Below, in pieces: positions 517-63,444 of a DNA stretch of 64,000 nt. Below the pieces are notes generated by a model that searched no databases, had not been told where the DNA came from, and saw nothing but the letters and a program-made list of their open reading frames with translations. The DNA comes from Bdellovibrionota bacterium (GTDB lineage Bacteria > Bdellovibrionota_C > UBA2361 > CAKMMH01): contig JAXFOK010000015.1 of the NCBI GenBank assembly GCA_034180415.1, positions 2,205 to 66,204 of the forward strand, written 5' to 3'. The translations under genes and the position numbers were made by a program. Every line of letters starts with the position of its first letter. The stretch's first letter is position 1.

Positions 517-520
517 TCGA

Positions 521-716
521 AAAAAGGCCGATACGCTAAAAAATACTGCGTTATTTTGAAAAAGGTTTCGCTCGCTGTACAACTTAGTACACCGTCGCTC
601 ACCTTTTTCAAAATGCCTTGTCTTTTTTGCGTCTCGGCCTTTTTTTATCTACAATACGCTAAAAAATACTTATGTTGTTTTAAAAAAAGTTTCGCTCGCT
701 GTATATTTCTTAAACG
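521..716. repeat. Family-A palindromic intergenic element: one full variant copy (521–647) plus a partial second copy (655–716)
   Basis: The termini aaaaaggccgatacgc ... gcgtctcggccttttt are inverted complements. Internal gtttcgctcgctgtac and caaaatgcctt modules are shared with the family-A copies at 4735, 21004 and 39357. The annotated ORF 556..747 lies wholly inside the repeat. Confidence 0.6.
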
Positions 717-3918: not shown

Positions 3919-4734
3919 TTGTATAAAGGATTTTTGTTTATGAATAAAAAAAATATTATAGAAAATAATAATGTCGATATAAAAAAAACAAATGAACCAC
4001 AATCAGAAATTGAAATAACATTTGTTGAAGATCCTTTATTTAGATTTTTTAAAAAATGGCAGAATGTTATTTTCTGGGGTCTTGTTGTTATAATTGCTTG
4101 CTATTTTGGTTATAATAAATATTCTGATATTAGAATAAATGAACAAAAAAGTGATGCAGATTTATTTGAAGAGTTTAGACCTATATACGCAAATATTATT
4201 ACCTTAAGTAAGGATATTAAGCAAAAAGAGTTAGAAATTCAAAAAGATACTAATGAGAAGAAAGATACTAAAGGAAAAGAAAAAGATTTAAATGAGCTAA
4301 AAGAACGTTTAACAAAATCATTAAGTGAGGCACAAAGTCGTATTAAGCCATTAGCTACAAGTAAATATTATAGCACTATTTCTAAGTTGTATTCTGCTTT
4401 ATTAAAGAAAAATGCAGGAGACCAAAAAGGTTTTGAAGAAGATATAAATAAAATAGATTTTAATAATTATAAAAATGAAAGTAATGAACAATCAAGATTT
4501 TACAAGGAGCTAGCGAGTATTATTATTGCAAAGGCCTACTTAGATGATGAAACGAAAATTTCAAATGCTAAAGAACTACTAACTAATTTAATAAAAGATG
4601 GTAAATATTTTAACGTGGTAGCTTTTAATACATTGTCAATAATTGCTAAAGGTGAGGAAGAAGAAGCGCTTAAGAAGTTAAAAGAAGAGTTGTTGAGTAA
4701 GGCTCCTGAACAATCTGAACTATTAAAAAATTAG
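3919..4734 (+). CDS. Membrane-anchored coiled-coil/TPR-like protein (possibly a YfgM-like translocon-associated protein)
   Basis: Single N-proximal transmembrane segment (VIFWGLVVIIACYFGY) followed by a charged helical region. The family assignment is tentative. Confidence 0.4.
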   Translation: MYKGFLFMNKKNIIENNNVDIKKTNEPQSEIEITFVEDPLFRFFKKWQNVIFWGLVVIIACYFGYNKYSDIRINEQKSDADLFEEFRPIYANIITLSKDIKQKELEIQKDTNEKKDTKGKEKDLNELKERLTKSLSEAQSRIKPLATSKYYSTISKLYSALLKKNAGDQKGFEEDINKIDFNNYKNESNEQSRFYKELASIIIAKAYLDDETKISNAKELLTNLIKDGKYFNVVAFNTLSIIAKGEEEEALKKLKEELLSKAPEQSELLKN

Positions 4735-4852
4735 TGATGTATCCAAGATTGCTTTGTTATATTAAGGGGGGGCAATGCTCATCGTAGCATGAGTACGCTT
4801 CCGATTGCCCCCCTTAAAATGCCACGCACTCTTGGCGTCTCACTAATTTTTT
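4735..4852. repeat. Family-A palindromic element (single copy) immediately after the stop codon of 3919..4734
   Basis: The 5' module gatgtatccaagattgc and 3' module aaatgccacgcactcttggcgtctcactaatttt match the family-A termini. The internal 14-bp inverted repeat is ttaagggggggcaat...attgccccccttaa. Confidence 0.65.
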
Positions 4853-4892
4853 AATCGCCAATGCATCTAAGATAACTATCAAAAGTTTATAT

Positions 4893-5080
4893 GGTCATTA
4901 CCCGAAGGGTAAACTAGAGCGAGCGTAAGCGAAGCGGCATAGGGCGTTACGTAGACACACGAATGTGTGGATGGCCAAGTAGACGAGCAATTTTGCGATA
5001 GTAAAATTGTGAAGGATACTTGGTTGTATGAGAATCACCATCAAAACAGCACCCCTTGCGGGTGCCCTAAGTAAAAAAAA
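4893..5080. ncRNA. GC-rich, highly structured intergenic element: candidate small RNA or structured repeat (strand undetermined)
   Basis: About 50% GC in a 30% GC genome. Perfect hairpins at ttacccgaagggtaa, cacacgaatgtgtg, ccaagta...tacttgg and gcaccccttgcgggtgc. No credible ORF: the 61-aa minus-strand ORF 4898..5083 is rejected. No RNase P, tmRNA or SRP signature motif. Confidence 0.3.
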
Positions 5081-14666: not shown

Positions 14667-14695
14667 TAAGGAAACACTGATTAATTTAAAATATC
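14667..14695. repeat. Family-B half-element (aaggaaacactgattaat)
   Basis: Shares aaggaaacactgattaat with 14798..14870 and, in inverted form, with 40014..40052. Confidence 0.5.
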
Positions 14696-14797
14696 TCGCA
14701 GAAGCCTATTATCTAAAATCCTATTCCTATATAGCAACATAAATTATATTTTTTTCGAAGAATTTTATATGAAGCTATTTTATTTTTTAGTAATTTA

Positions 14798-14870
14798 AAG
14801 AAAACACTGATTAATTCAAAATATCGTGTAAGGAGTCGACTAAAATTTTGCATTAATCAGTGTTTCCTTA
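14798..14870. repeat. Family-B palindromic element (14-bp perfect inverted repeat aaacactgattaat ... attaatcagtgttt)
   Basis: Perfect inverted repeat with an about 40-nt spacer. The 3' module gtcgactaaaattttgcattaatcagtgtttcctta is almost identical to ggcgactaaaactttgcatcagtgtttcctta at 40014..40052. Confidence 0.6.
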
Positions 14871-14888
14871 ATTTTAATTTTCTATTAA

Positions 14889-18692: not shown

Positions 18693-21002
18693 ATGAAAAT
18701 GTTACAAAGAGAAAAATTATTTTTAAGTTGTGTTTTTAGTCTTGCATTTATTGTTTTAACAAATAATGGAAATGCATTGTTAATTGATGATTTTAAGGAT
18801 GTTGATAATAATGGAAATCCTCTTGGACTGCAATCAAGCGTAAATTCAACTAATAGTACAAGTTGGAATGATGTTGGGTTAGCAAATGTAGTGGGCGGTT
18901 GTCGTAAAGTTGTTTTGAGTGGAGATGGAAGTGGAGTTTTTTCAGCTGGAAAGTATTCTCACAACCAAGATGATGCAAAAACTGCAAAGTCAATAATAAC
19001 ATGGGGGGAATGTGAAGACGGTACAGTGATGTCTGAAGTAGATTTCACAAAAGATGGTTCTAAATATTTTGTAGTCAAGTATAATAGTAATGATAGCGTG
19101 GATTATAGAGGAAAAATATATTTAAGATTATGGGATAGCTCTGATCATGAAGCAAATGTTCAGTGTGATCGTTATGAATCCGAGGAAGTGTACAAATGTA
19201 TGTACAAAAAATATACAGATGTTGATGTCGAGCTAGATAAGATTGTAAAGATTCAGTTGATAATGGATGGTTCAAGTGCATCTGGTTGGGATTTCGGTAT
19301 TGAGTCAGTTTTGACTGGAAATAGCCAAAATACAGTTTGTGGTGTTGTTCCTACTGCATCAAATAATTATGGTGCTAAAGATGAATGTGGATTCTGTCCA
19401 AATGATATAATGCCTGATAAATATCAATATGGTCAAGGAAAAGATGAGTGTGATTATTGTCCAAATGATACTTTGCCTGCTAACTATCAATATGGTGATG
19501 GAAAAATTTGTCGTAATTCATGTGATGTAAATCAAAATTGCGGATGGTGTCCAACAATCGATAATCCAGGAAAAGCTCATCAGAGGTATACTTGTAAGCA
19601 ATGTGATGATGGAATGGATAATGACGGAAAGGGTGATATTGACTGTGCTGATCCTCAATGCTTAAAGGGGGTTAATGGAAGCTGTGATCCTAACTATAAT
19701 AGTGAAGCACCACAGTGTAGCAATAAGAAAGATGATGATAATGATGGTAAGGTAGATAAAAACGATCCAGCATGTCTTGATGAAAATGGCAATTATAACC
19801 CAGACCTTGATGATGAATCAGATGAACCTGCTTGTTCTGATAAAGCAGATAATGATGGTGATGGTTTGATTGATTCAAAAGATCCTGGTTGCTATGCGAA
19901 AAATCCAAATACTGGAAAATATGAATATAAGCCAAATAAAAAGAGTGAAGAAGGACCAAATACTGAATGTTCAGATTCAAAAGATAATGATGGTGATGGA
20001 TATATTGATAGTAAAGATCCTGATTGTTGGTATACTGATTCAATTAAGTTAGGTGGAACTAAAGACTATTCAAATGAATCACCTTTTTATGATTGGAATC
20101 CTTGGGATCTTTCAGAAAGTGGTGCAAGAAAGTATCAATGTTCAGATGGAAAGGATAATGATGATGATGGGTTAGTTGATGCGCAAGATCCTGGATGTTT
20201 AGATGATAGTGGTAATTGGAATCCTAAGAAAGATAGCGAAATTAATTCAGATGATGGAAAACCAGAATGTTCAGATGGTAAGGATAATGATAAAGATGGA
20301 TATATAGATTATCCTGATGATCCAGGTTGCACATCAAAGGATGATGATTCTGAAAATGACAACATTACAAAGCCTGAATGTTCTGATGGTATTGATAATG
20401 ATAAAGATGGAAAAATTGATGAAGCTGATACTTCATGTTGGGTTTATGATAATAATGGAAATCCAATTAAGTACGATCCTAATATCGATGATGAATCAGG
20501 ATGTACAACAACTTCTAATGTAAGTAACTTAGATGTTGATAATGAAAGATTAGCTACAATTGGTTTAAATGCTGCTTTATATTTAAAGAGATTCCATGCT
20601 AATTCAAGTAATGAATATAAGAGAACTACTCTTTCTGCAAAACGTGCTGGAACTAAGATTAGTAAGGAAATTAATAAGGTGGTGACAGATTTGAAATCTT
20701 ATTCAGTTTCTTGTAATAGTCAGACAGGTTCTTCATGTAGAAATAACAATAATACAGAGCTTAACAAGTTTTCACAACAAGTTAGTCAATTAAATAAACT
20801 TGTTCGTCGTGCACAAAGAAGAGGTTTGTTCTTTAAGAAGAATTTTGAAAGCAAGGCAATTTCAAAAGCTAAGCAACAAAAAGCAGGTTACAAAAATGCA
20901 AAAGCTACTATGACTAATAACAGAAAGGCTGGAACAAGAATAACTGTTTATAATAATATAAATGCCAAGGTTAGTAGTATTAAGTCATTAGCTATTTGCT
21001 AA
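18693..21002 (+). CDS. Secreted protein (769 aa) with tandem Cys-bounded Asp-rich calcium/metal-binding-type repeats (TSP3/MopE-like) and a basic Lys/Arg-rich C-terminal domain
   Basis: Signal peptide. CPND-containing units (CGFCPNDIMPDKYQYGQG, CDYCPNDTLPANYQYGDG). At least 7 units of C-S-D-x-K-D-N-D-x-D-G-x-(I/V)-D-x-x-D-P-x-C (e.g. CSDKADNDGDGLIDSKDPGC, CSDSKDNDGDGYIDSKDPDC). Basic tail rich in K/R/N/S. Confidence 0.8.
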   Translation: MKMLQREKLFLSCVFSLAFIVLTNNGNALLIDDFKDVDNNGNPLGLQSSVNSTNSTSWNDVGLANVVGGCRKVVLSGDGSGVFSAGKYSHNQDDAKTAKSIITWGECEDGTVMSEVDFTKDGSKYFVVKYNSNDSVDYRGKIYLRLWDSSDHEANVQCDRYESEEVYKCMYKKYTDVDVELDKIVKIQLIMDGSSASGWDFGIESVLTGNSQNTVCGVVPTASNNYGAKDECGFCPNDIMPDKYQYGQGKDECDYCPNDTLPANYQYGDGKICRNSCDVNQNCGWCPTIDNPGKAHQRYTCKQCDDGMDNDGKGDIDCADPQCLKGVNGSCDPNYNSEAPQCSNKKDDDNDGKVDKNDPACLDENGNYNPDLDDESDEPACSDKADNDGDGLIDSKDPGCYAKNPNTGKYEYKPNKKSEEGPNTECSDSKDNDGDGYIDSKDPDCWYTDSIKLGGTKDYSNESPFYDWNPWDLSESGARKYQCSDGKDNDDDGLVDAQDPGCLDDSGNWNPKKDSEINSDDGKPECSDGKDNDKDGYIDYPDDPGCTSKDDDSENDNITKPECSDGIDNDKDGKIDEADTSCWVYDNNGNPIKYDPNIDDESGCTTTSNVSNLDVDNERLATIGLNAALYLKRFHANSSNEYKRTTLSAKRAGTKISKEINKVVTDLKSYSVSCNSQTGSSCRNNNNTELNKFSQQVSQLNKLVRRAQRRGLFFKKNFESKAISKAKQQKAGYKNAKATMTNNRKAGTRITVYNNINAKVSSIKSLAIC

Positions 21003-21003
21003 T

Positions 21004-21388
21004 AAAATTGACGATGCATCCAAGATTGCGTCGTTATTCGAGAGAGATGCCGTCCTCGCTGTACTTAATAGTACAGCTGTGGGTGCATCCTCTCGAATGC
21101 CTAGCACTCTTGGCGCCTCGTCAATTTTATATATTAAGACGATGCATGTGATGATGCTACGTTCATTTTGAGGGATAAACGGTCCTTGCTGTACTTAATA
21201 GTACAGCTGTGGGAGCATCCTCCCGAATGCCTAGCACTCTTGGCGCCTCGTCAATTTTATATATTAAGACGATGCATGTGATGATGCTACGTTCATTTTG
21301 AGGGATAAACGGTCCTTGCTGTACTAATCGTACAGCTGTGGGAGCATCCTCTCGAATGCCTAGCACTCTTGGTGCCTCGTCAATTTTA
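21004..21388. repeat. Tandem array of three family-A palindromic elements (units about 121 nt)
   Basis: Copy 1 is 21004–21128. Copies 2 and 3 (21129–21249, 21250–21388) form a 121-nt direct repeat (atattaagacgatgcatgtgatgatgc...). Each has a central hairpin gctgtacttaatagtacagc and a 3' module gaatgcctagcactcttggcgcctcgtcaatttt. Termini are inverted complements. The ORF 21163..21408 is a repeat artefact. Confidence 0.8.
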
Positions 21389-21514
21389 TAAAATGGACCT
21401 TTTAACAACCCCTAAAAGGTAAAAGTTTTAATGGGTTGGTGCGTAATTAAAGTTTGCTGTGAAAAATTTCGATATTGAGTATAGGTTGGATTATATTTTT
21501 TTAAGTTTTAAGCT

Positions 21515-32675: not shown

Positions 32676-33634
32676 ACAAGATTCCTTTTATTTAATAAAG
32701 TTAATTACAATAATCAAATTTTACACACACATTCTCTTTGCTAGCTAGTTAACTAAAAAGTCAACTTATAGTCTGCTAGCACTGATTCACTAGCGTTAAT
32801 GATATGTATAAAGTTAAGAATATACAAAAATATTAAATTATGAAAAATTAAAACTCCAATTTATAGAAAAATGCTTTGTAATCTTAAAACAACCTAAATA
32901 AACATAAGCTCCCTAAATAAATACGAGCTTTAAGCGTAAGACTAACTTAAAGGCTATTAAAAGACTACACGCTAAGCCTTAAAAACTCATAATAAAATAT
33001 TTTTACAACATTTAAAAACGATACTAATTTTAACGACTAAATAAGTCCTAAATTTTTTCAATCGTAAAAGAATATTTTGATATTCTACTAAAAAAAAAAT
33101 CTTACTCAATATAAAAAGGATTAATAAAGCAAAAAATCCTTTTTGAAAGATTCTTTAAGTAAAATATAAATGAAACCTATATAGAAAAATCGCCTTAAAT
33201 TTTGAAATAGAAACTTCAAAATAGCGAATCCACACAAGCTTAATAATACTAAACTTAAAAGTAACCCAAATTTAGCTTGTTTGTTTAGCTTGTTTGTTTA
33301 GTTTGTTTTTAAGCTTTATCTTTAAGCTTATATTGTGTTATATCTTATATAAGCTTGTCTGAATTTGCTACTTATTCTACTAAAAAATTTAACTTCTAAC
33401 CTTAAAAAACTATATTCTTTCAAACCGATTGCACACGATTATATGAAAAAGAAATTCAAACTTCAAGAAAAAAATACATTAGCGATAAAAAAAATAAAAA
33501 AATAGAATAATGTTTAAAAATTACTTGACTTAGATAAAAAATTGGGTCTTAAATTTTGAAAAATATCAAGGCTTTAACTTAATTTTTACGTAAAAACTTC
33601 ATGTATTTTATAGTGTGAATTATTACTAATATTT

Positions 33635-37115: not shown

Positions 37116-39356
37116 ATGGTTACTAAAAGATTACGATTAGCTGTTTGGTGGGAAAGGCTTGAGATGCCTTTAAAACTAGCACTTTTTGTGCTTGGAGCTT
37201 CGCTTTTAGCATTAGTTATCTATTGGCAAAAACCTCGGTTTGAAATTGAGAATTTTGGAAGTAATTTAACTTTTTTTATCCTTATTAATTTAAATATTGC
37301 ACTTCTTTTTGTTTTTGTTTTTCTAGTAGCAAGAAATATCGTTAAACTTATTTTTGAACGAAAACAAAATATACTAGGTTCAAAGTTAAAAGAAAAATTA
37401 ATTTTTGCATTTGGTGGTTTAACTCTTGTTCCTACAATTATCATTTTTATTCTTTCTAGCACAATGCTTAGTCATTCAATGGAAGAAATTTTTTCGAAAA
37501 ATATTTTGGAAGCTATTACTGGGGCTAATGAACTTGCACAAAATTACTACGGGAGTGTTGAGAAGGATTATGAAAGTTTAGGAAGTGAGATAGAAAAAGA
37601 AATAGGAAAAGAAATTAATAATCTAAATATTAATAATCCTGAAAATAAAAAGGAAATTCTTAAAGGTTATTTTTCTTCAGTAATTCAAGATGAGAATGTG
37701 TTTGATGTAACATTAGTTGATGATAAAGATAATGTTGTAGCCGATTTTACAAAGCAAAATATAAAGAGCAAATATAAACTTAGTCTAGATGGCGAGTCAA
37801 TAAAAGAAATAATTAAAAAACATGTTTCTAGGTCTATTGTAGAGGAAGTCGGTAAAGACCAGGTGATGAGGATTTATTATCCAATAAGAATTAATAATGA
37901 ATATTATGCTCTGGTTTTAACAGGTATTATCGATAAAAGTATGAATGAATCTTTACTTCAAGTAGAAGATGCATATAAAGATTACGAAAATTTATTGTTT
38001 CACAAAAATCCTGTTCGTTCAAGTTATTTGTTGACGCTTGCTATGATGACAATGCTTATTTTATTTGCCGCAATTTGGGTAGCATTTTATATCGCAAAAG
38101 AAATTACTGTACCAATTGAAAAGCTTGCAAATGCAACAAAACAAGTAGCTCATGGTGATTATGATTGCGTTATTAAAACTGTTGGAAGTGATGAGATTTC
38201 TTATTTAAGTCGTTCATTTAATATGATGCTTTCTGATTTAAAGCAATCAAAAAATGAAACCGAACGTCATCGTCTTTTTATGGAAACTGTACTTTCAAAC
38301 CTTGCAGTAGGTGTTATTACTCTTAATAAAGATAGAAAGCTTATTGCTGTAAATACCGCAGCATCTGACATTTTAAATCTAACAGCCGGGGAGCATAATG
38401 GGAGTAAATCATTGTATGATATTTTTGATAAACAAATAGCAGATAAACTTATAAGCTTACTAAATAATTCCTCTTTAATATTAGATGAATTTAGTTCAGG
38501 TATGACAGACACTGAGTTTACTATAAGATCTGAAGGGCGTGAATATCAAATAGTTTGCACAGCCGGCGTTATAGTTGATAGCACGGGAGATACTTTAGGA
38601 AGCGTTCTTATATTTGATGATGTAACGGACTTATCGCATGCACAAAAAATGGCTGCATGGCGAGAAGTCGCAAGAAGAATCGCTCATGAAATAAAAAATC
38701 CATTAACTCCTATTAGGCTATCTGCTCAGCGTATTCAACGAGATGCAAAGCTTAATAATCTTCCGTCGTTATATAATGAGTCAAGTTCAATGATTGTAGA
38801 GCAAGTAGATATCATTAAAAGATTAATTGATGAGTTCTCAAATTTCGCAAGAATGCCGACATCATCTTTTGAAAAAGTAGATATTGTTGCTTTCTTAAAA
38901 GATATTATTCAATCATTTTCTGAAAATAATGAAGATATTGAATTTAATGCTGATATAGAAGAAGATGCATTAGAAACATCTGTAGATATTGGGCAAATGA
39001 GACTTGTCCTCCTTAACTTATTTGAAAATGCAATGCAAGCCTTAAGGAATGCGAAAATAGAAGACCCTAAAATTAATGTTAAACTTTCTTATTTAAAAAA
39101 GATTAAATCTTTTTCAATTGAAATTGCAGATAATGGCCCTGGAATTTCTGATATTGATAAAACAAGAATTTTTGAACCTTATTATACGACAAAAGAAACA
39201 GGAACAGGACTTGGACTTGCAATCGTTACTTCAGTTATTTCTGACCATCGAGGGCGAATTAGAATATTTGACAACAAGCCAAGAGGCGCGAAATTTATTA
39301 TTACACTTCCGCTTTCGCAAGGCGATGCTAGGGCTAAGACTCAACGTTTCAATTAA
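37116..39356 (+). CDS. Membrane sensor histidine kinase (NtrY-like: TM region, HAMP, PAS, HisKA, HATPase_c), no cognate regulator adjacent
   Basis: Multiple N-terminal TM helices. HAMP (...VPIEKLANATKQVAHGDYD...). The PAS-like segment has no strong signature and is inferred from the HAMP–HisKA spacing. H-box RIAHEIKNPLTPI. G-boxes DNGPGISD and GTGLGLAIV. Confidence 0.85.
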   Translation: MVTKRLRLAVWWERLEMPLKLALFVLGASLLALVIYWQKPRFEIENFGSNLTFFILINLNIALLFVFVFLVARNIVKLIFERKQNILGSKLKEKLIFAFGGLTLVPTIIIFILSSTMLSHSMEEIFSKNILEAITGANELAQNYYGSVEKDYESLGSEIEKEIGKEINNLNINNPENKKEILKGYFSSVIQDENVFDVTLVDDKDNVVADFTKQNIKSKYKLSLDGESIKEIIKKHVSRSIVEEVGKDQVMRIYYPIRINNEYYALVLTGIIDKSMNESLLQVEDAYKDYENLLFHKNPVRSSYLLTLAMMTMLILFAAIWVAFYIAKEITVPIEKLANATKQVAHGDYDCVIKTVGSDEISYLSRSFNMMLSDLKQSKNETERHRLFMETVLSNLAVGVITLNKDRKLIAVNTAASDILNLTAGEHNGSKSLYDIFDKQIADKLISLLNNSSLILDEFSSGMTDTEFTIRSEGREYQIVCTAGVIVDSTGDTLGSVLIFDDVTDLSHAQKMAAWREVARRIAHEIKNPLTPIRLSAQRIQRDAKLNNLPSLYNESSSMIVEQVDIIKRLIDEFSNFARMPTSSFEKVDIVAFLKDIIQSFSENNEDIEFNADIEEDALETSVDIGQMRLVLLNLFENAMQALRNAKIEDPKINVKLSYLKKIKSFSIEIADNGPGISDIDKTRIFEPYYTTKETGTGLGLAIVTSVISDHRGRIRIFDNKPRGAKFIITLPLSQGDARAKTQRFN

Positions 39357-39730
39357 AAAATTGGCGATGCATCGCGAAGATTGTTGCGTTATTTGAATGT
39401 AAGTCTTGCTAGCTGTACAAAAGTACAGCGTCGCTTCGAGTTCATTCAAATGCCTTGCACTCTTCGCGCCTCGCCAATTTTTTATAGGCAAAGAGAAGAG
39501 AAAGATTTTGGCGATGCATCGCGAAGATTGCTGCGTTATTTGAATGTAAGTCTTGCTAGCTGTACAAAAGTACAGCGTCGCTTCGAGTTCACTTAAATGC
39601 CTTGCACTCTTCGCGCCTCGCCAATTTTTTATAGGCAAAGAGAAGAGAAAGATTTTAGCGATGCATCGCGAAGATCGCTGGTTATTTGAATTTAACTCTT
39701 GCTAGCTGTACAAAAGTACTGCTACATACC
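39357..39730. repeat. Tandem array of family-A palindromic elements (two full units of about 149 nt plus a truncated third)
   Basis: Each unit is aaaattggcgatgcatcgcgaagattg ... gctgtacaaaagtacagcg ... caaatgccttgcactcttcgcgcctcgccaatttttt, separated by the spacer ggcaaagagaagagaaagatt. The termini are inverted complements. ORFs 39231..39638 and 39381..39596 are repeat artefacts. Confidence 0.8.
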
Positions 39731-39848
39731 TGACCCGTAAGGGTAATGGTACCTGCAGGTCTAAATTTTTGCACAAAATGTGATTTGATTCGAGAAATTA
39801 TGGGATATTTGCGATTTGATTCTGAATCGTAAGAATTTTAAGGAAAAA

Positions 39849-40018
39849 CCCCGTTAGAGGTTTATTAGAGCATGCGTTAGCATGCGGCGCTAGGGCAGAA
39901 TGTAGATGAACGAAGTGAGGCTGCCGGTGTAGACTCGGGAATGTTCGCGTTAGCGACATTCACGAGGATACTCCGGTGTGTGTAATAACCTCATAAATTC
40001 CGCCCACGTAGGGGGCGA
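39849..40018. ncRNA. GC-rich structured intergenic segment: candidate small RNA or decayed element
   Basis: About 50% GC. Hairpins at gcatgcgttagcatgc, gaatgttcgcgttagcgacattc (about 10-bp stem) and cgcccacgtagggggcg. No ORF. Flanked by a family-B module at 40014..40052. Confidence 0.25.
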
Positions 40019-40052
40019 CTAAAACTTTGCATCAGTGTTTCCTTAAAATTAC
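40014..40052. repeat. Family-B module (ggcgactaaaactttgcatcagtgtttcctta)
   Basis: Near-identical to the 3' module of the element at 14798..14870. Confidence 0.55.
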
Positions 40053-41006: not shown

Positions 41007-41221
41007 AGATCAAACCTTGCAATAAAAATAATACTACTATTAAAAATAGTTAAAATGAATATGTATAAATGAATATTAGTTTCCTAAAACATTCCACTTG
41101 TTAACTTATCAATCTTTGCCTGGTAATAGGAATCAGATTTTTTATATTCATCAAAGACATCATATAAAGTAACAAATATTTTTGCAATATTACTTCGAAC
41201 GACATGAACGATGATATCACT

Positions 41222-41320
41222 GAAGCTTAAAAAAATAACAAGACGCAAAAAAGGCGAGGCATTTGAGGGGGACCAACCGGAGGCGTGCTTTTGTACGTTG
41301 AGGATTGGTCCTCTTTGGAA
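41222..41320. repeat. Family-E element, truncated copy (5' half)
   Basis: gcttaaaaaaataacaagacgcaaaaaaggcgaggcatttgagggggaccaaccggaggcgtgcttttgtacgttgaggattggtcctc matches 41458.. over about 95 nt. ORFs 41084..41326 and 41448..41642 are repeat artefacts. Confidence 0.7.
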
Positions 41321-41457
41321 AAACAAAAATAAAGTTTTAGGTATTAAATATGGTTGAAGAATATGTTAAAAGTGTATGCTTGATTCCGGAAAAAGGATGA
41401 GGCACCGGCAATGATAGGCATTTTCATAAAAAGCGAGAGAAAGAGGGATGATTTATA

Positions 41458-41600
41458 AGAAGCTTAAAAAAATAACAAGACGCAAAAAAGGCGAGGCATT
41501 TGAGGGGGACCAACCGGAGGCGTACTTTTGTACGTCGAGGATTGGTCCTCCCTCAAATAACGAAGCATTTTTTGATGTATTGTTATTTTTTTTAAGCTTG
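41458..41600. repeat. Family-E palindromic element, complete copy (about 140 nt)
   Basis: Outer inverted repeat gcttaaaaaaataacaa ... ttgttattttttttaagc. Inner inverted repeats gcatttgagggggaccaa ... ttggtcctccctcaaata and ggaggcgtacttttgtacgtcgagg. It abuts the stop of the minus-strand gene 41592..42149. Its aaaaaaggcgaggcatttga module is the reverse complement of the family-A 3' module with the central part deleted. Confidence 0.7.
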
Positions 41601-49687: not shown

Positions 49688-50049
49688 TGAAGTCTAAAGT
49701 AAAATCATTAATACTATTTAAAAAATGTTGGTAATAATATAAGACAATAAAAAGATGATTTGCATTTAGGAAAATATAATTACAATAAAGCAAGTATGAA
49801 TTCTTTAATAGCTTTAAATAATATTTTAAAAAGCTATTTTGATGAACAAGAAATAGCAGAGATGATGGTATAGCTTGATATTGATTATCATAAAATAATT
49901 TATATAATATCATGTATTTTAAAAGACTAAATATTTAAGATTTAAGGTTTTTAATAATATTTTAATAAGTTTCCATTGTGATATAAGAAGTTGTTTCATT
50001 GTTTTTTCCTTGATTGATTTATATTTTTTAGGCTACCTTAATCTTTTTC

Positions 50050-50094
50050 TAAGTAGCGTTAAGGTATTTTTATAAAAGATATCTTAACGCTACT
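50050..50094. promoter_or_regulatory. Perfect 13-bp inverted repeat (operator-like) about 55 nt upstream of the 50150 gene, with a -10-like tataaa in the spacer
   Basis: aagtagcgttaag-gtatttttataaaagatat-cttaacgctactt. The arms are exact reverse complements. GC content of the arms is well above the local background. Confidence 0.5.
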
Positions 50095-50149
50095 TACAAC
50101 AGGGTAAGATAGCAAAAAAAATTCCCGAAAAATAAATAAAGGAATAAAA

Positions 50150-51275: not shown

Positions 51276-52463
51276 ATGGATAAAAAAAAGAAAAGTAATA
51301 TTAAAAATTTAACTACCGATCCATTTAAAGAATATCTAAAAGTTAAAAATCCTAGTAAAGAAGAAAAGGTTTATGCTTGGCAAACAGCTATAGGCCTTCA
51401 AGATGTTGATGGACTTTCAGTTTCAAAATATTTGTTAAGTGTTGCAAAAGAAAATATCGATGGAATTATTAATCTAAATGAGGCTAAAAAACGTATAGAT
51501 TCATATTATGAAGAAGTAACACATCGTAAACTTGAAACTACAAAAGAGTCTGATAAAGTTTCTGTAAGGATTACTAAAATTCTTGGAGAAAAGTCTTTTG
51601 TTTTTTCACCTTCGCAATATATTTCAATTCATAGACGTTTGTTTCAAGGAGTTTATAAGCATGCTGGAAAAGTTAGAAAATATGATATATTAAAAAAAGA
51701 ATGGATATTAAACGGTGCTTCCATTATCTATGGTGGTAAAAAAGAGCTTATGGAAACTCTTGAATATGATTTTAAAGTTGAGAAGGAATTTTGTTATAAA
51801 AATTTAACAAAAAATAAAATGATAACTCATCTTGCGCGTTTTATAGCAAACTTATGGCAAATACATATTTTTGAAGAAGGAAATACTCGAACAACAGCTG
51901 TATTTTTAATTAAATATCTTAAGTTCTTGGGATTTAATGTAACTAATGATATCTTTGCCAAGAATGCATGGTATTTTAGAAATGCACTTGTTAGGGCAAT
52001 TTATAAAGATGCTTCTAAAGGAATTTTTGAAGATTTATCATTTCTAGAATTATTTTTAAGAAACCTAATATTAAATGAAAAGAATGTATTAAAAAATAGA
52101 TATTTACATTTAAATTGGAAAAATAAAGATAACAAAAAACAGCACAAAAAACAGCACAATAAACAGCACATTGAAAATGGAAAAATAGAAGATTTAAAAG
52201 GAAAATCTAAGGCTTCTTGTAATAAAAAGCTTCAAAATACTTTAGAAAAAAATATGCTTTCTGATAAGACAAGTAAAAATATCTTGAAACTTTATAATGA
52301 ATTTCAGAATAAAAAGATATTTTCGAGAAAAGATATTATGGCTATTCTTAATATTACACAAAGACCTGCATCAACTCTTATTAAAAAAATGTATTTATTA
52401 AAATTTATAGATAAAGTTCATGGGGCAGGAAAGGGCAAATATAAGTTTTATAAATTAAATTAG
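51276..52463 (+). CDS. Fic/Fido-family protein with a non-canonical active-site motif and a C-terminal winged-helix domain
   Basis: The Fic motif is present as HIFEEGNTRTTA, against canonical HxFx(D/E)GNGRxxR: G to T at position 8 and no terminal Arg. Low-complexity KQHKKQHNKQH repeat. C-terminal wHTH-like ...ILNITQRPASTLIKKMYLLKFID... Confidence 0.7.
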   Translation: MDKKKKSNIKNLTTDPFKEYLKVKNPSKEEKVYAWQTAIGLQDVDGLSVSKYLLSVAKENIDGIINLNEAKKRIDSYYEEVTHRKLETTKESDKVSVRITKILGEKSFVFSPSQYISIHRRLFQGVYKHAGKVRKYDILKKEWILNGASIIYGGKKELMETLEYDFKVEKEFCYKNLTKNKMITHLARFIANLWQIHIFEEGNTRTTAVFLIKYLKFLGFNVTNDIFAKNAWYFRNALVRAIYKDASKGIFEDLSFLELFLRNLILNEKNVLKNRYLHLNWKNKDNKKQHKKQHNKQHIENGKIEDLKGKSKASCNKKLQNTLEKNMLSDKTSKNILKLYNEFQNKKIFSRKDIMAILNITQRPASTLIKKMYLLKFIDKVHGAGKGKYKFYKLN

Positions 52464-52548
52464 TAATTGCCATAAGTAATTTATTAAATATGTAAAGAGA
52501 TAGCTATCTTATTTTGAGATGATTAACCGTCGAAAACAGGAAAATACA

Positions 52549-52605
52549 AAAAAAGCACGAAAAACTTAACCTTTGTTTAAGCCTTACTTTTCGTGCTTTT
52601 TTTTT
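52549..52605. terminator. Bidirectional intrinsic terminator between the convergent Fic (+) and PFOR (-) genes
   Basis: aaaaaagcacgaaaa...cttttcgtgcttttttttt: an 11-bp stem flanked by an A-run on one side and a T-run on the other. Confidence 0.6.
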
Positions 52606-52614
52606 GCATATAAA

Positions 52615-60814: not shown

Positions 60815-63444
60815 TAAACTTTAATAATTATACTGTAAAAGCAAGAGAGTGTTTTGAGCTTGCACAAAAAACTTTAGCTAGGATGTCACATCAGCAACTT
60901 TCAGTAGAACATCTTTTTTATGCAATGCTTGAACAAAATGAAGATATTATAAAAGATATTTTTGAAAATAATAAAATTAATATTAAGTCTTTAAAAAGTG
61001 ACACGCAGAAACTATTGGACAGAATTCCAAGTGTTAGAGGTGTTACTCAAGAACTTGATAAGGTGTATGTTACACAAGAACTTCAAAAAGTTTTTCTTGA
61101 AGCTGAGAATGTAAAATTAAGATTTAAAGATGAATATGTATCATTAGAACATATTTTACTTGCTATTTTTGAGGTTGAAAATCCAGTAAAGGAACTTTTA
61201 AAAAGTAAAGGATTAGATCAAAATAAAATTTTACTTTCCCTTGAAACAATAAGAGGAAATCAAAAGATTACTTCTGATAATCCTGAAAGCACGTATAACG
61301 CACTTAAAAAATACGGAAGAGATTTACTAGAAGAAGCCAAAAGAAATAAACTAGAGCCAATTATAGGGCGTGATGAAGAGATAAGACGTGCTATACAAAT
61401 TCTTTCAAGAAAAACTAAAAATAATCCTGTGCTTATTGGTGAACCAGGTGTCGGTAAGACTGCAATTGTTGAAGGGCTAGCTCAAAGAATTCTTAATAAA
61501 GAAGTTCCTGAGAGTTTAAAAAATAAAACAATCTTTGCTCTTGATATGGGAGCACTTGTCGCAGGAGCTAAATATAGAGGTGAATTTGAAGAGAGGTTAA
61601 AAGCAGTTTTAACTGAAGTTAAAAAATCAAATGGTAATATTATTTTATTTATAGATGAACTTCACTTAATAGTTGGTGCTGGAAAAACAGATGGTGCAAT
61701 GGATGCAGGAAATATGCTAAAACCAATTCTTGCTCGTGGTGAACTTCACTGTATTGGTGCTACGACTCTTGATGAGTATAGGCAATACATTGAAAAAGAC
61801 AAGGCACTAGAAAGACGTTTTCAGCCAATTATTGTAAAAGAGCCAAGCATTGAAGATACAATTTCAATCTTAAGAGGTATAAAAGATAGATACGAACTTC
61901 ATCATGGAGTTATGATAAAAGACTCTGCATTAATAAGTGCAGCTAAGATGTCTGCTAGATATATTGGAGATCGATATTTACCTGATAAAGCAATCGATTT
62001 GGTTGATGAAGCTTGTGCAAGAATTAGAACTGATATCGATTCTATGCCTTATGAACTTGAGGAGGTAAATAGAAAAATAATTGAACTTCAAATTGAGGAG
62101 GCTGCACTAAAAAGAGAAACAGAAACTGATAATCAAATAAGATTACAAGAAATTAAAAAAGAACTTGTAGAATATAAAGAAAAGTTTACAAAATTAAATT
62201 CTCAGTGGAGTACTGAAAAAACTATAATTTCTGAGGTTAGAGAAATTAAGAAAGAAATTGAGAATGTAAAATTTGAAATTGAAAATGCACAGCGTGCTTA
62301 CGATTTAAATAAAGTTGCTAAACTTCAACACGGTACTTTGCCTGAGCTTAAAGCTAAGTTAAAAGAAAAAGAAGCACAAATTGAAAACTTCGATACTAAG
62401 CTTTTAAGAGAAACAGTAGGTGAAGAAGAAATCGCAAATGTAGTTTCTAAATGGACAGGTATTCCACTAGATAGACTTATAGAAACTGAAAGACAAAAAC
62501 TTTTAAAATTAGAAGAAAGACTTCATAAGCGAGTTATAGGACAAGATGAAGCTGTAACACTTGTTTCAAATGCAATAATTAGAGCAAGAAGTGGTATAAA
62601 AGACCCGCAAAAGCCAATAGGAAGTTTTATGTTTTTAGGCTCAACTGGTGTTGGTAAAACTGAGCTTGCAAAAGCACTTGCTGAATGTTTGTTTGATAGT
62701 GATAAAAATATTGTAAGAATTGATATGAGTGAATATATGGAAGCTCATACGGTTTCAAGGCTTATTGGTGCGCCTCCAGGATACATTGGTTTTGATGAAG
62801 GAGGACAACTTACCGAGGCTGTAAGAAGAAACCCATATTCAATTGTGCTTTTTGATGAAATTGAAAAAGCACATAGTGATGTTTTAAATATTTTACTTCA
62901 AGTATTAGATGATGGGCGTTTAACAGATTCAACAGGTAAGCTTGTTGATTTTACAAATACAATTGTAATTATGACATCTAATTTTGGAGCAGAATACTTA
63001 ACTGAAGTTATAAATGGAAATGGTTCTTTAGATGAAGCGAAAGATAATTTAACAAAGAGTTTAAGGACTAAGTTTAAACCTGAGTTTTTAAATAGGATTG
63101 ATGAAATTATAGTCTTTAATCCATTAACTAAAAATGAAGTTCTTGCGATCGTTGATAAGATTTTAAATGAAACGAGAAAACGTTTAAAGGAAATGGACTT
63201 ACTTTTGGATGTATCACAAGGTGCCAAAGAATATATTGCCAGGGTTGCTTTTGATCCAATATATGGTGCTAGGCCAATAAAGAGATATATTCAAAATACG
63301 CTTGAAACACTTATTGCTAAAACACTTATTAAAGAATCAGTTCCTAAAGGTGCTACGCTTTGTGTTCTTCTTAAAAATAATAATGGAGATAATGCTAACA
63401 ATACAGAAGATATGCTAGAAGTCGTAGTAAGATTAGAGAATTAA
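60811..63444 (+). CDS. clpB: Chaperone disaggregase ClpB
   Basis: 877 aa. Two AAA+ modules ([32 protein letters not shown]). Long middle coiled-coil domain (present in ClpB, absent from ClpA). N-terminal Clp_N repeats. Confidence 0.95.

Follow-up and report, generated by a model that had tools for sequence, protein, structure and literature searches.

Long imperfect-palindrome repeats with covarying stems at the 3' ends of genes in an uncultured gut bacterium related to Bdellovibrionota

An array of imperfect palindromes occupies positions 39357-39730 of the stretch studied here, directly behind a histidine kinase gene. Do the two arms of such copies vary in step, which strand would fold, and what kind of repeat is this? 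The initial annotation had described the copies as modular stem-loop elements under selection, of RPE/REP/Correia type, with compensatory substitutions in their terminal stems.

The window (the whole 64-kb stretch of DNA that was analysed, ~30% GC) carries core genes, including mutS, ruvB, an NtrY-like kinase, neighbours of trmD, a tad pilus locus and clpB. Its host is an uncultured gut bacterium related to Bdellovibrionota/Oligoflexia: the nearest GTDB representatives by RuvB are Oligoflexia and Bdellovibrionota MAGs (64-68% identity), and for the methyltransferase the closest match from another species, labelled Bdellovibrionota, shares 87% identity. Many gut-metagenome contigs, as well as the MAG GCA_028724725.1, encode proteins identical to those of the window. 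Several other features of the region were recorded along the way. Just beyond window position 63444, after clpB, lies a strain-variable region (L108 12996-14552; L110 14168-15034) that in some strains holds a gene for 518 or 288 aa without a Pfam match and in others two tiny ORFs. Beyond the right window edge, at L107 15100-15230 (minus strand), a GC-rich, structured-looking leader (GGGAGTCGGGTGAACCCGCGCGGCTGCAAG) sits just upstream of a GH3-family gene and may be a cis-regulatory RNA. Short tandem repeats occur at 33271-33316 (13 nt, 3.6 copies) and 52132-52170 (12 nt, 3.2 copies).

The palindrome behind the kinase gene belongs to a family. Its ~130-nt unit is present at five loci in the window, namely 517-706 (+), 4724-4875 (+), 21001-21393 (+), 39354-39722 (+) and 41225-41593 (-), here called A to E, and in two further copies on metagenome contig L011. 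A covariance model (R1) with 132 positions was built from seven copies and used to scan the window; six full copies scored 115-141 bits, with lower scores for array members at 21135-21260, 21262-21393 and 41225-41356 (-). A pattern for the 3' module occurs nine times in the window, where 0.05 occurrences are expected. Weaker R1 matches at 50031-50117, 52547-52607 and 14794-14873 are other hairpins and were excluded from the family. The members are as follows.

517-650, plus strand: copy A1, full hairpin (R1 518-650, 114.7 bits; -53.4 kcal/mol, z -10.8), beginning 4 nt past the TAA stop (514-516) of a porin gene
651-705, plus strand: distal orphan 5' half-copy of array A, cut in the apical loop (repeat family D7, 75% identity to 539-582)
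4724-4856, plus strand: copy B1, full hairpin (R1 127.3 bits; fold z -6.6), whose outer stem contains the TAG stop (4732-4734) and final codons of the upstream TPR-like gene
4855-4875, plus strand: short orphan 5' fragment TCGCCAATGCATCTAAGAT after B1, found by alignment and abutting an X element (see below)
21001-21134, plus strand: copy C1, full hairpin directly past a TAA stop (21000-21002) (R1 136.8 bits; -63.4 kcal/mol, z -9.5)
21135-21393, plus strand: copies C2 and C3, hybrid units with a period of 130 (R1 46.5 and 54 bits; z ~-3.9; TRF 2.6 copies)
39354-39487, plus strand: copy D1, full hairpin (R1 129.2 bits; fold z -7.0), the first triplet of its outer stem being the TAA stop (39354-39356) of the NtrY-like histidine kinase gene (Pfam)
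39501-39634, plus strand: copy D2, full hairpin, second unit of an array with a 147-nt period (R1 118.9 bits; TRF 2.4 copies, 96% match)
39648-39722, plus strand: terminal orphan 5' half-copy of array D (repeat family D8, 93% identical), cut just past the apical hairpin and followed by an X region
41462-41593, minus strand: copy E1, full hairpin (R1 141.1 bits), whose outer stem holds the TAA stop (41594-41592) of an RNA methyltransferase gene
41210-41461, minus strand: remainder of array E, period 237 (repeat family D6, 89% identical; R1 42.7 bits at 41225-41356), consisting of a spacer with a decayed 3' module (~41394-41427), then a second inner-stem/apical/3' half unit (41210-41327)

The X elements that adjoin some of these copies form a second non-coding repeat family, GC-richer and full of hairpins, with no match in Rfam. 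Long copies of X lie at window 4893-5080 and 39843-40045, at L130 1118-1310 and at L107 15283-15447 (minus strand), and three of these four adjoin copies of the hairpin family. Motifs common to them include an AYCCCG-loop-GGGRU hairpin, GGYGYUAGG preceded by a GC hairpin, and another GC hairpin at the end. Strain L130 carries X as a ~280-nt insertion right after C1, bounded by the inverted repeats GGAAACGCTGATTAAT and ATTAATCAGCGCTTCC; the insertion is absent in the nine other strains examined. A short, internally deleted X copy at window 14797-14873 has the same inverted repeats, GAAAACACTGATTAAT and ATTAATCAGTGTTTCC, around ~45 nt. Its right end recurs in the X tail at 40027-40042, and a solo X left end lies 130 nt upstream of it, at 14670-14685. 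The gene upstream of array C (18693-21002) has repeats of its own, in this case coding: it encodes a 769-aa protein, for which no record was found on look-up, with tandem repeats at 19377-20440 made of 63-nt units and of spaced 111-171-nt units rich in GATAATGATGGTGATGG (Asp/Asn/Gly-rich, calcium-binding-like). Versions of this protein in other strains have 762-767 aa.

Full copies of the hairpin family fold well below their own shuffles (z -4.4 to -10.8), and each folds over its whole length into a single long, rod-like hairpin with four helices. D1 and D2, separated by 13 nt between their extreme ends and by ~22 nt between their well-paired cores, each fold independently as a single long and irregular hairpin (-46 to -54 kcal/mol, z -4.4 to -7.0). 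Read from the outside inwards, the hairpin begins with an outer stem in which a 5' A-run pairs with a 3' U-run; the element ends are AAAATTGRYGA (5') and TCRYCAATTTT (3'), and the stem has a GC core, then 4-7 U able to pair with the A-run. A 2-bp helix beside an AUC bulge comes next, then a second stem, a U/C mismatch and a 2-3 bp stem. Midway, a 3x3 internal loop lies beside the invariant 5' YGUUAU / 3' AAUGCC, which pair as G-C, bulged U, U.G and A-U. A variable inner stem of ~12 bp leads to the conserved apical domain, composed of a 2-bp helix, an internal loop and a short helix ending in GUAC-N4-GUAC. The AUC bulge, the 3x3 internal loop, the bulged U, the U.G pair and the apical GUAC-N4-GUAC are thus conserved across loci, and the stems are the variable part.

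The stems covary between loci. The outer stem, for instance, reads GGCGA:UCGCC in the copy at 39357, GACGA:UCGUC at 21004, AGUGA:UCACU at 4735, GGCCGA:UCGGCC at 521 and AACAA:UUGUU at 41590 (minus strand). RNAalifold on seven copies gave 48 pairs, 26 of them changed on both sides yet still pairing. In a set of 12 sequences, which comprises eight copies from seven loci plus strain variants and represents only 7-8 independent loci, 96.5% of 515 cells were paired, and 25 of 43 pairs had changes on both sides. The terminal helix taken alone (22 pairs) was 97.3% paired, with 14 pairs double-changed. None of 500 column shuffles matched the observed pairing, double-change counts or covariation score, and when partners were slid by 1-3 columns as a control, pairing fell to 40-55%. 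Copy-to-copy identity is only ~60-75% despite this pairing. The compensatory substitutions first noticed in the terminal stems are therefore real and reach far beyond the two examples then quoted: substitutions in the two arms are correlated across the alignment, and the data support the conclusion that the hairpin has been maintained while its sequence diverged, also beyond the terminal stems.

Some details of the earlier description need correction. The terminal strings that it quoted are found in the sequence, except on the 3' side of the copies at 39357, where cactcttCGCgcctcgccaatttt stands in place of atcttCGC. Complementary differences between the 39357 and 21004 arrays hold up, but the 5' arms also differ by a 2-nt indel, so that in the second stem the exchange of G:C for C:G is accompanied by a register shift. 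A central core thought to have been swapped in the 4735 and 521 copies does not in fact depart from the other copies in architecture or in apical motif (GUAC-loop-GUAC and its flanking internal loop); it is the inner stem that differs, and it covaries. As to the wider claim that the copies are functional elements under selection, maintenance of the structure is borne out, but not every copy is constrained. C2 and C3, in which a divergent 5' half of another variant is fused to a C1-type 3' half, pair poorly (z ~-3.9, compared with -9.5 for C1), and in strains L093 and L094 only a half hairpin, an orphan 5' half, is apparent after the stop codon at locus D. Selection could act on the spread of the element itself rather than on a benefit to the host, and correction of palindromes at the DNA level is conceivable.

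Could such complementarity arise without any selection on structure? The copies might be neutral relics of an extinct palindromic repeat, with complementarity of the arms produced by DNA repair or template switching in palindromes together with local gene conversion. Neither function nor mobility has been demonstrated for the family, recombination clearly shapes its arrays, and hybrid and half copies persist, all of which would sit well with relics. Palindrome correction should, however, remove mismatches, whereas the same bulges and internal loops are kept at all loci and it is the paired positions that vary, a pattern unlike the outcome of correction at the DNA level. Nor would neutrality predict pairing of 96.5% across copies that are ~60-75% identical, or the shared orientation and stop-codon placement at seven of seven loci described next, and we regard neutral origin as very improbable.

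All seven loci are co-oriented with the upstream gene (two-sided p ~0.016), and at each of them the element starts at or overlaps the stop codon of that gene. At D1 and E1 the outer stem has the stop TAA as its first triplet; the element begins directly past the stop at C1 and in the minus-strand copy on L011, and 4 nt past it at A1. At B1 and in the plus-strand L011 copy the reading frame enters the element, which supplies the last three and eight codons, respectively, along with the stop. The copy adjoining the stop codon is the intact one at every locus, with its A-rich 5' end on the stop. A small peptide encoded by the hairpin was considered and rejected, the ATG in GATGCATC being missing from A1 and E1. 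On L011, two convergent genes each have their own co-oriented copy, which places both orientations within 200 bp, and E1, like the gene ahead of it, is on the minus strand; the copies are therefore oriented by transcription and not by replication.

Two further observations bear on which strand folds. Scores with R1 are strongly asymmetric (sense, 115-141 bits vs. antisense, 49-56 bits). Among paired cells of the seven independent copies there are 16 G.U vs. three A.C, seven of the G.U falling in one invariant column; in variable columns the count is nine G.U vs. three A.C (p = 0.15), which is not significant alone, and the excess is only suggestive of folding at the RNA level. Position and orientation are the stronger argument.

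Conserved loops flanked by covarying stems are the signature of functional RNAs, and this raises the possibility that the element is a structured 3' UTR module selected by the host, whose loops and apical hairpin bind a dedicated RNA-binding protein or RNase. The copies would then be regulatory parts of mRNAs, kept by selection on RNA structure, rather than selfish DNA. Strict co-orientation with genes and placement at stop codons fit this proposal, as does the fixation of the elements in all strains sampled, and the fact that each locus has its own variant suggests long residence rather than a recent burst. The upstream genes are functionally unrelated, however (a porin, a TPR-like protein, a repeat-rich secreted-type protein, a histidine kinase and an RNA methyltransferase), and the same genes occur in a related species without the element. 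The tolerance of hybrid and half copies also speaks against it, as do the lack of a known candidate binding protein and of any match to the family in Rfam. On balance we think a host regulatory module unlikely. Going further, the family might be an undescribed class of structured RNA at mRNA 3' ends, in which the terminating ribosome gates the outer stem and so couples translation to termination or decay, while a dedicated protein reads the loops; we would put this forward as a speculation with little probability behind it. In a bolder variant the copies would spread by a step guided by RNA or coupled to transcription, a route that would account for their strict co-orientation with genes.

While every strain sampled has the element at each locus, the number of units varies. 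Locus A has one, two or more units (strain L149 has one extra full unit), locus C has one, two or three (C1 being the only unit in L121, L123 and L128), locus D has zero or two full units ahead of the orphan half, and locus E has one, two or three. These comparisons use short-read contigs, and contigs assembled at k=141 should not skip units of this size. Many short-read contigs end inside hairpin arrays (L002, L003, L005, L008, L010 and L096-L099), as does a contig of the MAG GCA_028724725.1, and several scaffolds have N gaps in the arrays. The repeats thus fragment short-read assemblies of the host genome, and their variable unit numbers are possible strain markers.

The copies within an array are direct repeats. 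Arrays A, B and D have the form of a 5' half followed by n units of [3' half + spacer + 5' half], which leaves an orphan 5' half at the end; in array E the repeating unit measures 237 nt and includes the decayed 3' module of a copy of greater age. Breakpoints differ between arrays, falling at GCTGTA|T in A and after GTACAGC in D, and the idea that a site-specific recombinase acts at a single fixed position in the apical palindrome was rejected on this ground. Unequal recombination between neighbouring copies would account for the growth and shrinkage of arrays. Repeated insertion at the stop codon, by which older copies were shifted downstream to decay, is one possible source of the distal orphan 5' halves at three loci.

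The layout of the arrays also bears on whether the hairpin might be read as DNA. A strand-specific enzyme acting on single-stranded DNA, such as an IS200/IS605-type or REP-associated tyrosine transposase, or else a recombinase acting at the GCTGTAC-N4-GTACAGC palindrome, could recognize the folded element, and covariation would then serve transposition or recombination and not RNA. Like the hairpins of single-strand transposases, these elements conserve structure more than sequence and keep their mismatches; array breaks frequently lie in or close to the apical palindrome; and some copies contain a CGTC motif, CGTC-tagged palindromic repeats being a known class (PMC3733652). Against this stand the orientation of the copies, which tracks the gene and not replication (E1; both orientations within 200 bp on L011), the variable breakpoints, a length of ~130 nt vs. 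20-40 nt for REPs, and the lack of any such enzyme among the window proteins scanned with Pfam. We therefore consider a DNA-level role for the hairpin quite improbable.

Searches for mobility genes gave uniformly negative results. No transposase domain was found in 34 proteins of the window and its flanks scanned with Pfam, nor in precomputed Pfam listings of genes on the strain contigs, and no Y1 transposase or RAYT gene was seen among the window proteins scanned. The element is thus non-autonomous or no longer mobile. Its ends are equivocal in this respect. The dinucleotide TA is found at both ends of B1, C1, D1 and E1 (four of seven), and not of A1 or the L011 copies; TA is self-complementary, so the TA flanks may merely extend the stem. 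The flanks of E1 allow the reconstruction of an insertion into the TA of an original TAA, with the A-run of the element restoring the stop codon, although, TA being self-complementary, this is not decisive. The outermost inverted repeats are the most variable part of the element, the opposite of what a transposase that recognizes terminal inverted repeats would need, and the presence of a different variant at every locus is unlike a recent burst.

Outside the window, copies were sought in a range of collections. A strict pattern that matches all nine window copies had no matches in GTDB representative genomes or in IMG/VR, and in JGI metagenomes it recovered one true locus (L011) and one chance terminator. 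Ten matches in IMG/VR to a looser pattern for the 5' module were all rejected by R1, and plasmids searched by blastn gave no match. Rfam covariance models run over the whole window gave no match at the gathering score, and around arrays B and D only chance-level matches (E up to 10) were seen. A protein search with a spurious antisense ORF spanning array D returned the same locus only. No further copies were found in the 10 kb to the right of the window (L107); the left flank was covered by a 3.5-kb contig only. R1 also found no match over 41 kb from the relative with the 87% identical marker and from a second relative (86% identical marker). In the first of these the gap between the methyltransferase and HD genes is 6 nt and holds no element, though its flanks differ too, and no copy follows the kinase gene, where the flanks also differ, so that this is not a clean empty site. 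In the data searched, the family thus appears to be private to the host lineage.

Taken together, these observations lead us to favour, by a modest degree, a lineage-restricted, non-autonomous imperfect-palindrome repeat of ~130 nt, of the ERIC/Correia (bacterial MITE-like) kind, with a probable role as a hairpin at mRNA 3' ends. Transcription of the upstream gene would run on into the element, which would form the 3' end of the mRNA; flanked by an A-tract and a U-tract, the hairpin could there serve as a transcription terminator and/or as a barrier to 3' exonucleases, that is, a stabiliser. With the element on the stop codon, a ribosome halted there would cover the 5' arm of the outer stem, and translation could in this way modulate folding. 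Copies may have spread by insertion at TA/TAA sites by means of an enzyme encoded elsewhere, after which arrays would expand and contract through unequal recombination of adjacent copies. The work adds a well-supported structured repeat family, absent from Rfam, from a poorly known gut lineage. Clear covariation combined with a strict rule for stop codon and orientation makes this family well suited as a natural test for action of such repeats at the level of RNA, and R1 can be used to count its members in a complete genome.

How does the family compare with repeats already described? Bacterial genomes are known to contain small repeats (100-200 bp) that have TA termini and give transcripts forming long stem-loops, and TA flanks are a feature of Correia, ERIC and RUP (PMC2229807). 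The closest parallel is with ERIC/IRU (127 bp), which is of nearly equal length and likewise an imperfect palindrome, with a transcript that forms a single long stem-loop, as that of the present element would; ERIC has TA termini, and TA flanks four of the seven copies here. Both occur in intergenic regions near gene ends, which are transcribed in the case of ERIC and probably so here. ERIC is co-transcribed, with an effect on upstream mRNA that depends on orientation, and in Yersinia a conformational change induced by the ribosome has been proposed, for which orientation is crucial (PMC2229807). ERIC is reported to act differently in its two orientations, whereas the seven loci here all have one orientation. 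The present family also differs in that its stems have diverged strongly and covary, tandem arrays occur often and the host belongs to an unrelated lineage. E. coli genomes contain ERIC and REP, but a distant-mode blastn search of 5,426 of them returned no match.

Correia/NEMIS elements of Neisseria (~100-155 bp) are small, non-autonomous palindromic repeats too, and have TA termini. They are described (PMC2229807; PMC2649163) as co-transcribed with neighbouring genes, with hairpins that RNase III can bind, and as able to alter gene ends. They are set apart, by their description, in having conserved terminal inverted repeats of 24-26 bp and, in the long form, an IHF site, whereas the termini of the present family are its most variable part and differ from copy to copy, the conserved parts being internal loops. 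REP/BIME elements resemble the family as extragenic palindromes at gene 3' ends for which roles in termination and mRNA stabilisation have been proposed (PMC3733652 and PMC2817692), but REPs are 20-40 bp long, alternate in BIMEs and are linked to RAYT, whereas the copies here are ~130 nt and form direct repeats. RPEs are palindromic repeats of ~100-150 bp that can add coding sequence to host genes (PMC2229807), and two copies here similarly supply C-terminal codons and a stop. RPEs are, however, inserted in frame within genes and translated through, whereas the present copies enter coding sequence only at its extreme 3' end and are otherwise noncoding.

Features shared with bidirectional intrinsic (Rho-independent) terminators include the A-tract, the GC-containing stem and the U-tract just past a stop codon. 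Ordinary terminator-shaped hairpins do occur elsewhere in the window (e.g., 52547-52607), but the family hairpin is far longer (~125 nt, four helices), has conserved internal loops and belongs to a repeat family with shared sequence. Integron attC sites were considered and rejected: the ends lack RYYYAAC/GTTRRRY boxes, and the flanking genes are core genes (mutS, ruvB and trmD neighbours). The RPE/REP/Correia-like label of the initial annotation is apt insofar as the element resembles ERIC, Correia and RPE in size, shape and setting; membership in REP, ERIC or Correia is not supported, given the lack of a match in E. coli and the ~130-nt direct repeats. The family does not appear to belong to any named family, and it is of the same kind as known small bacterial repeats rather than a new kind of system.
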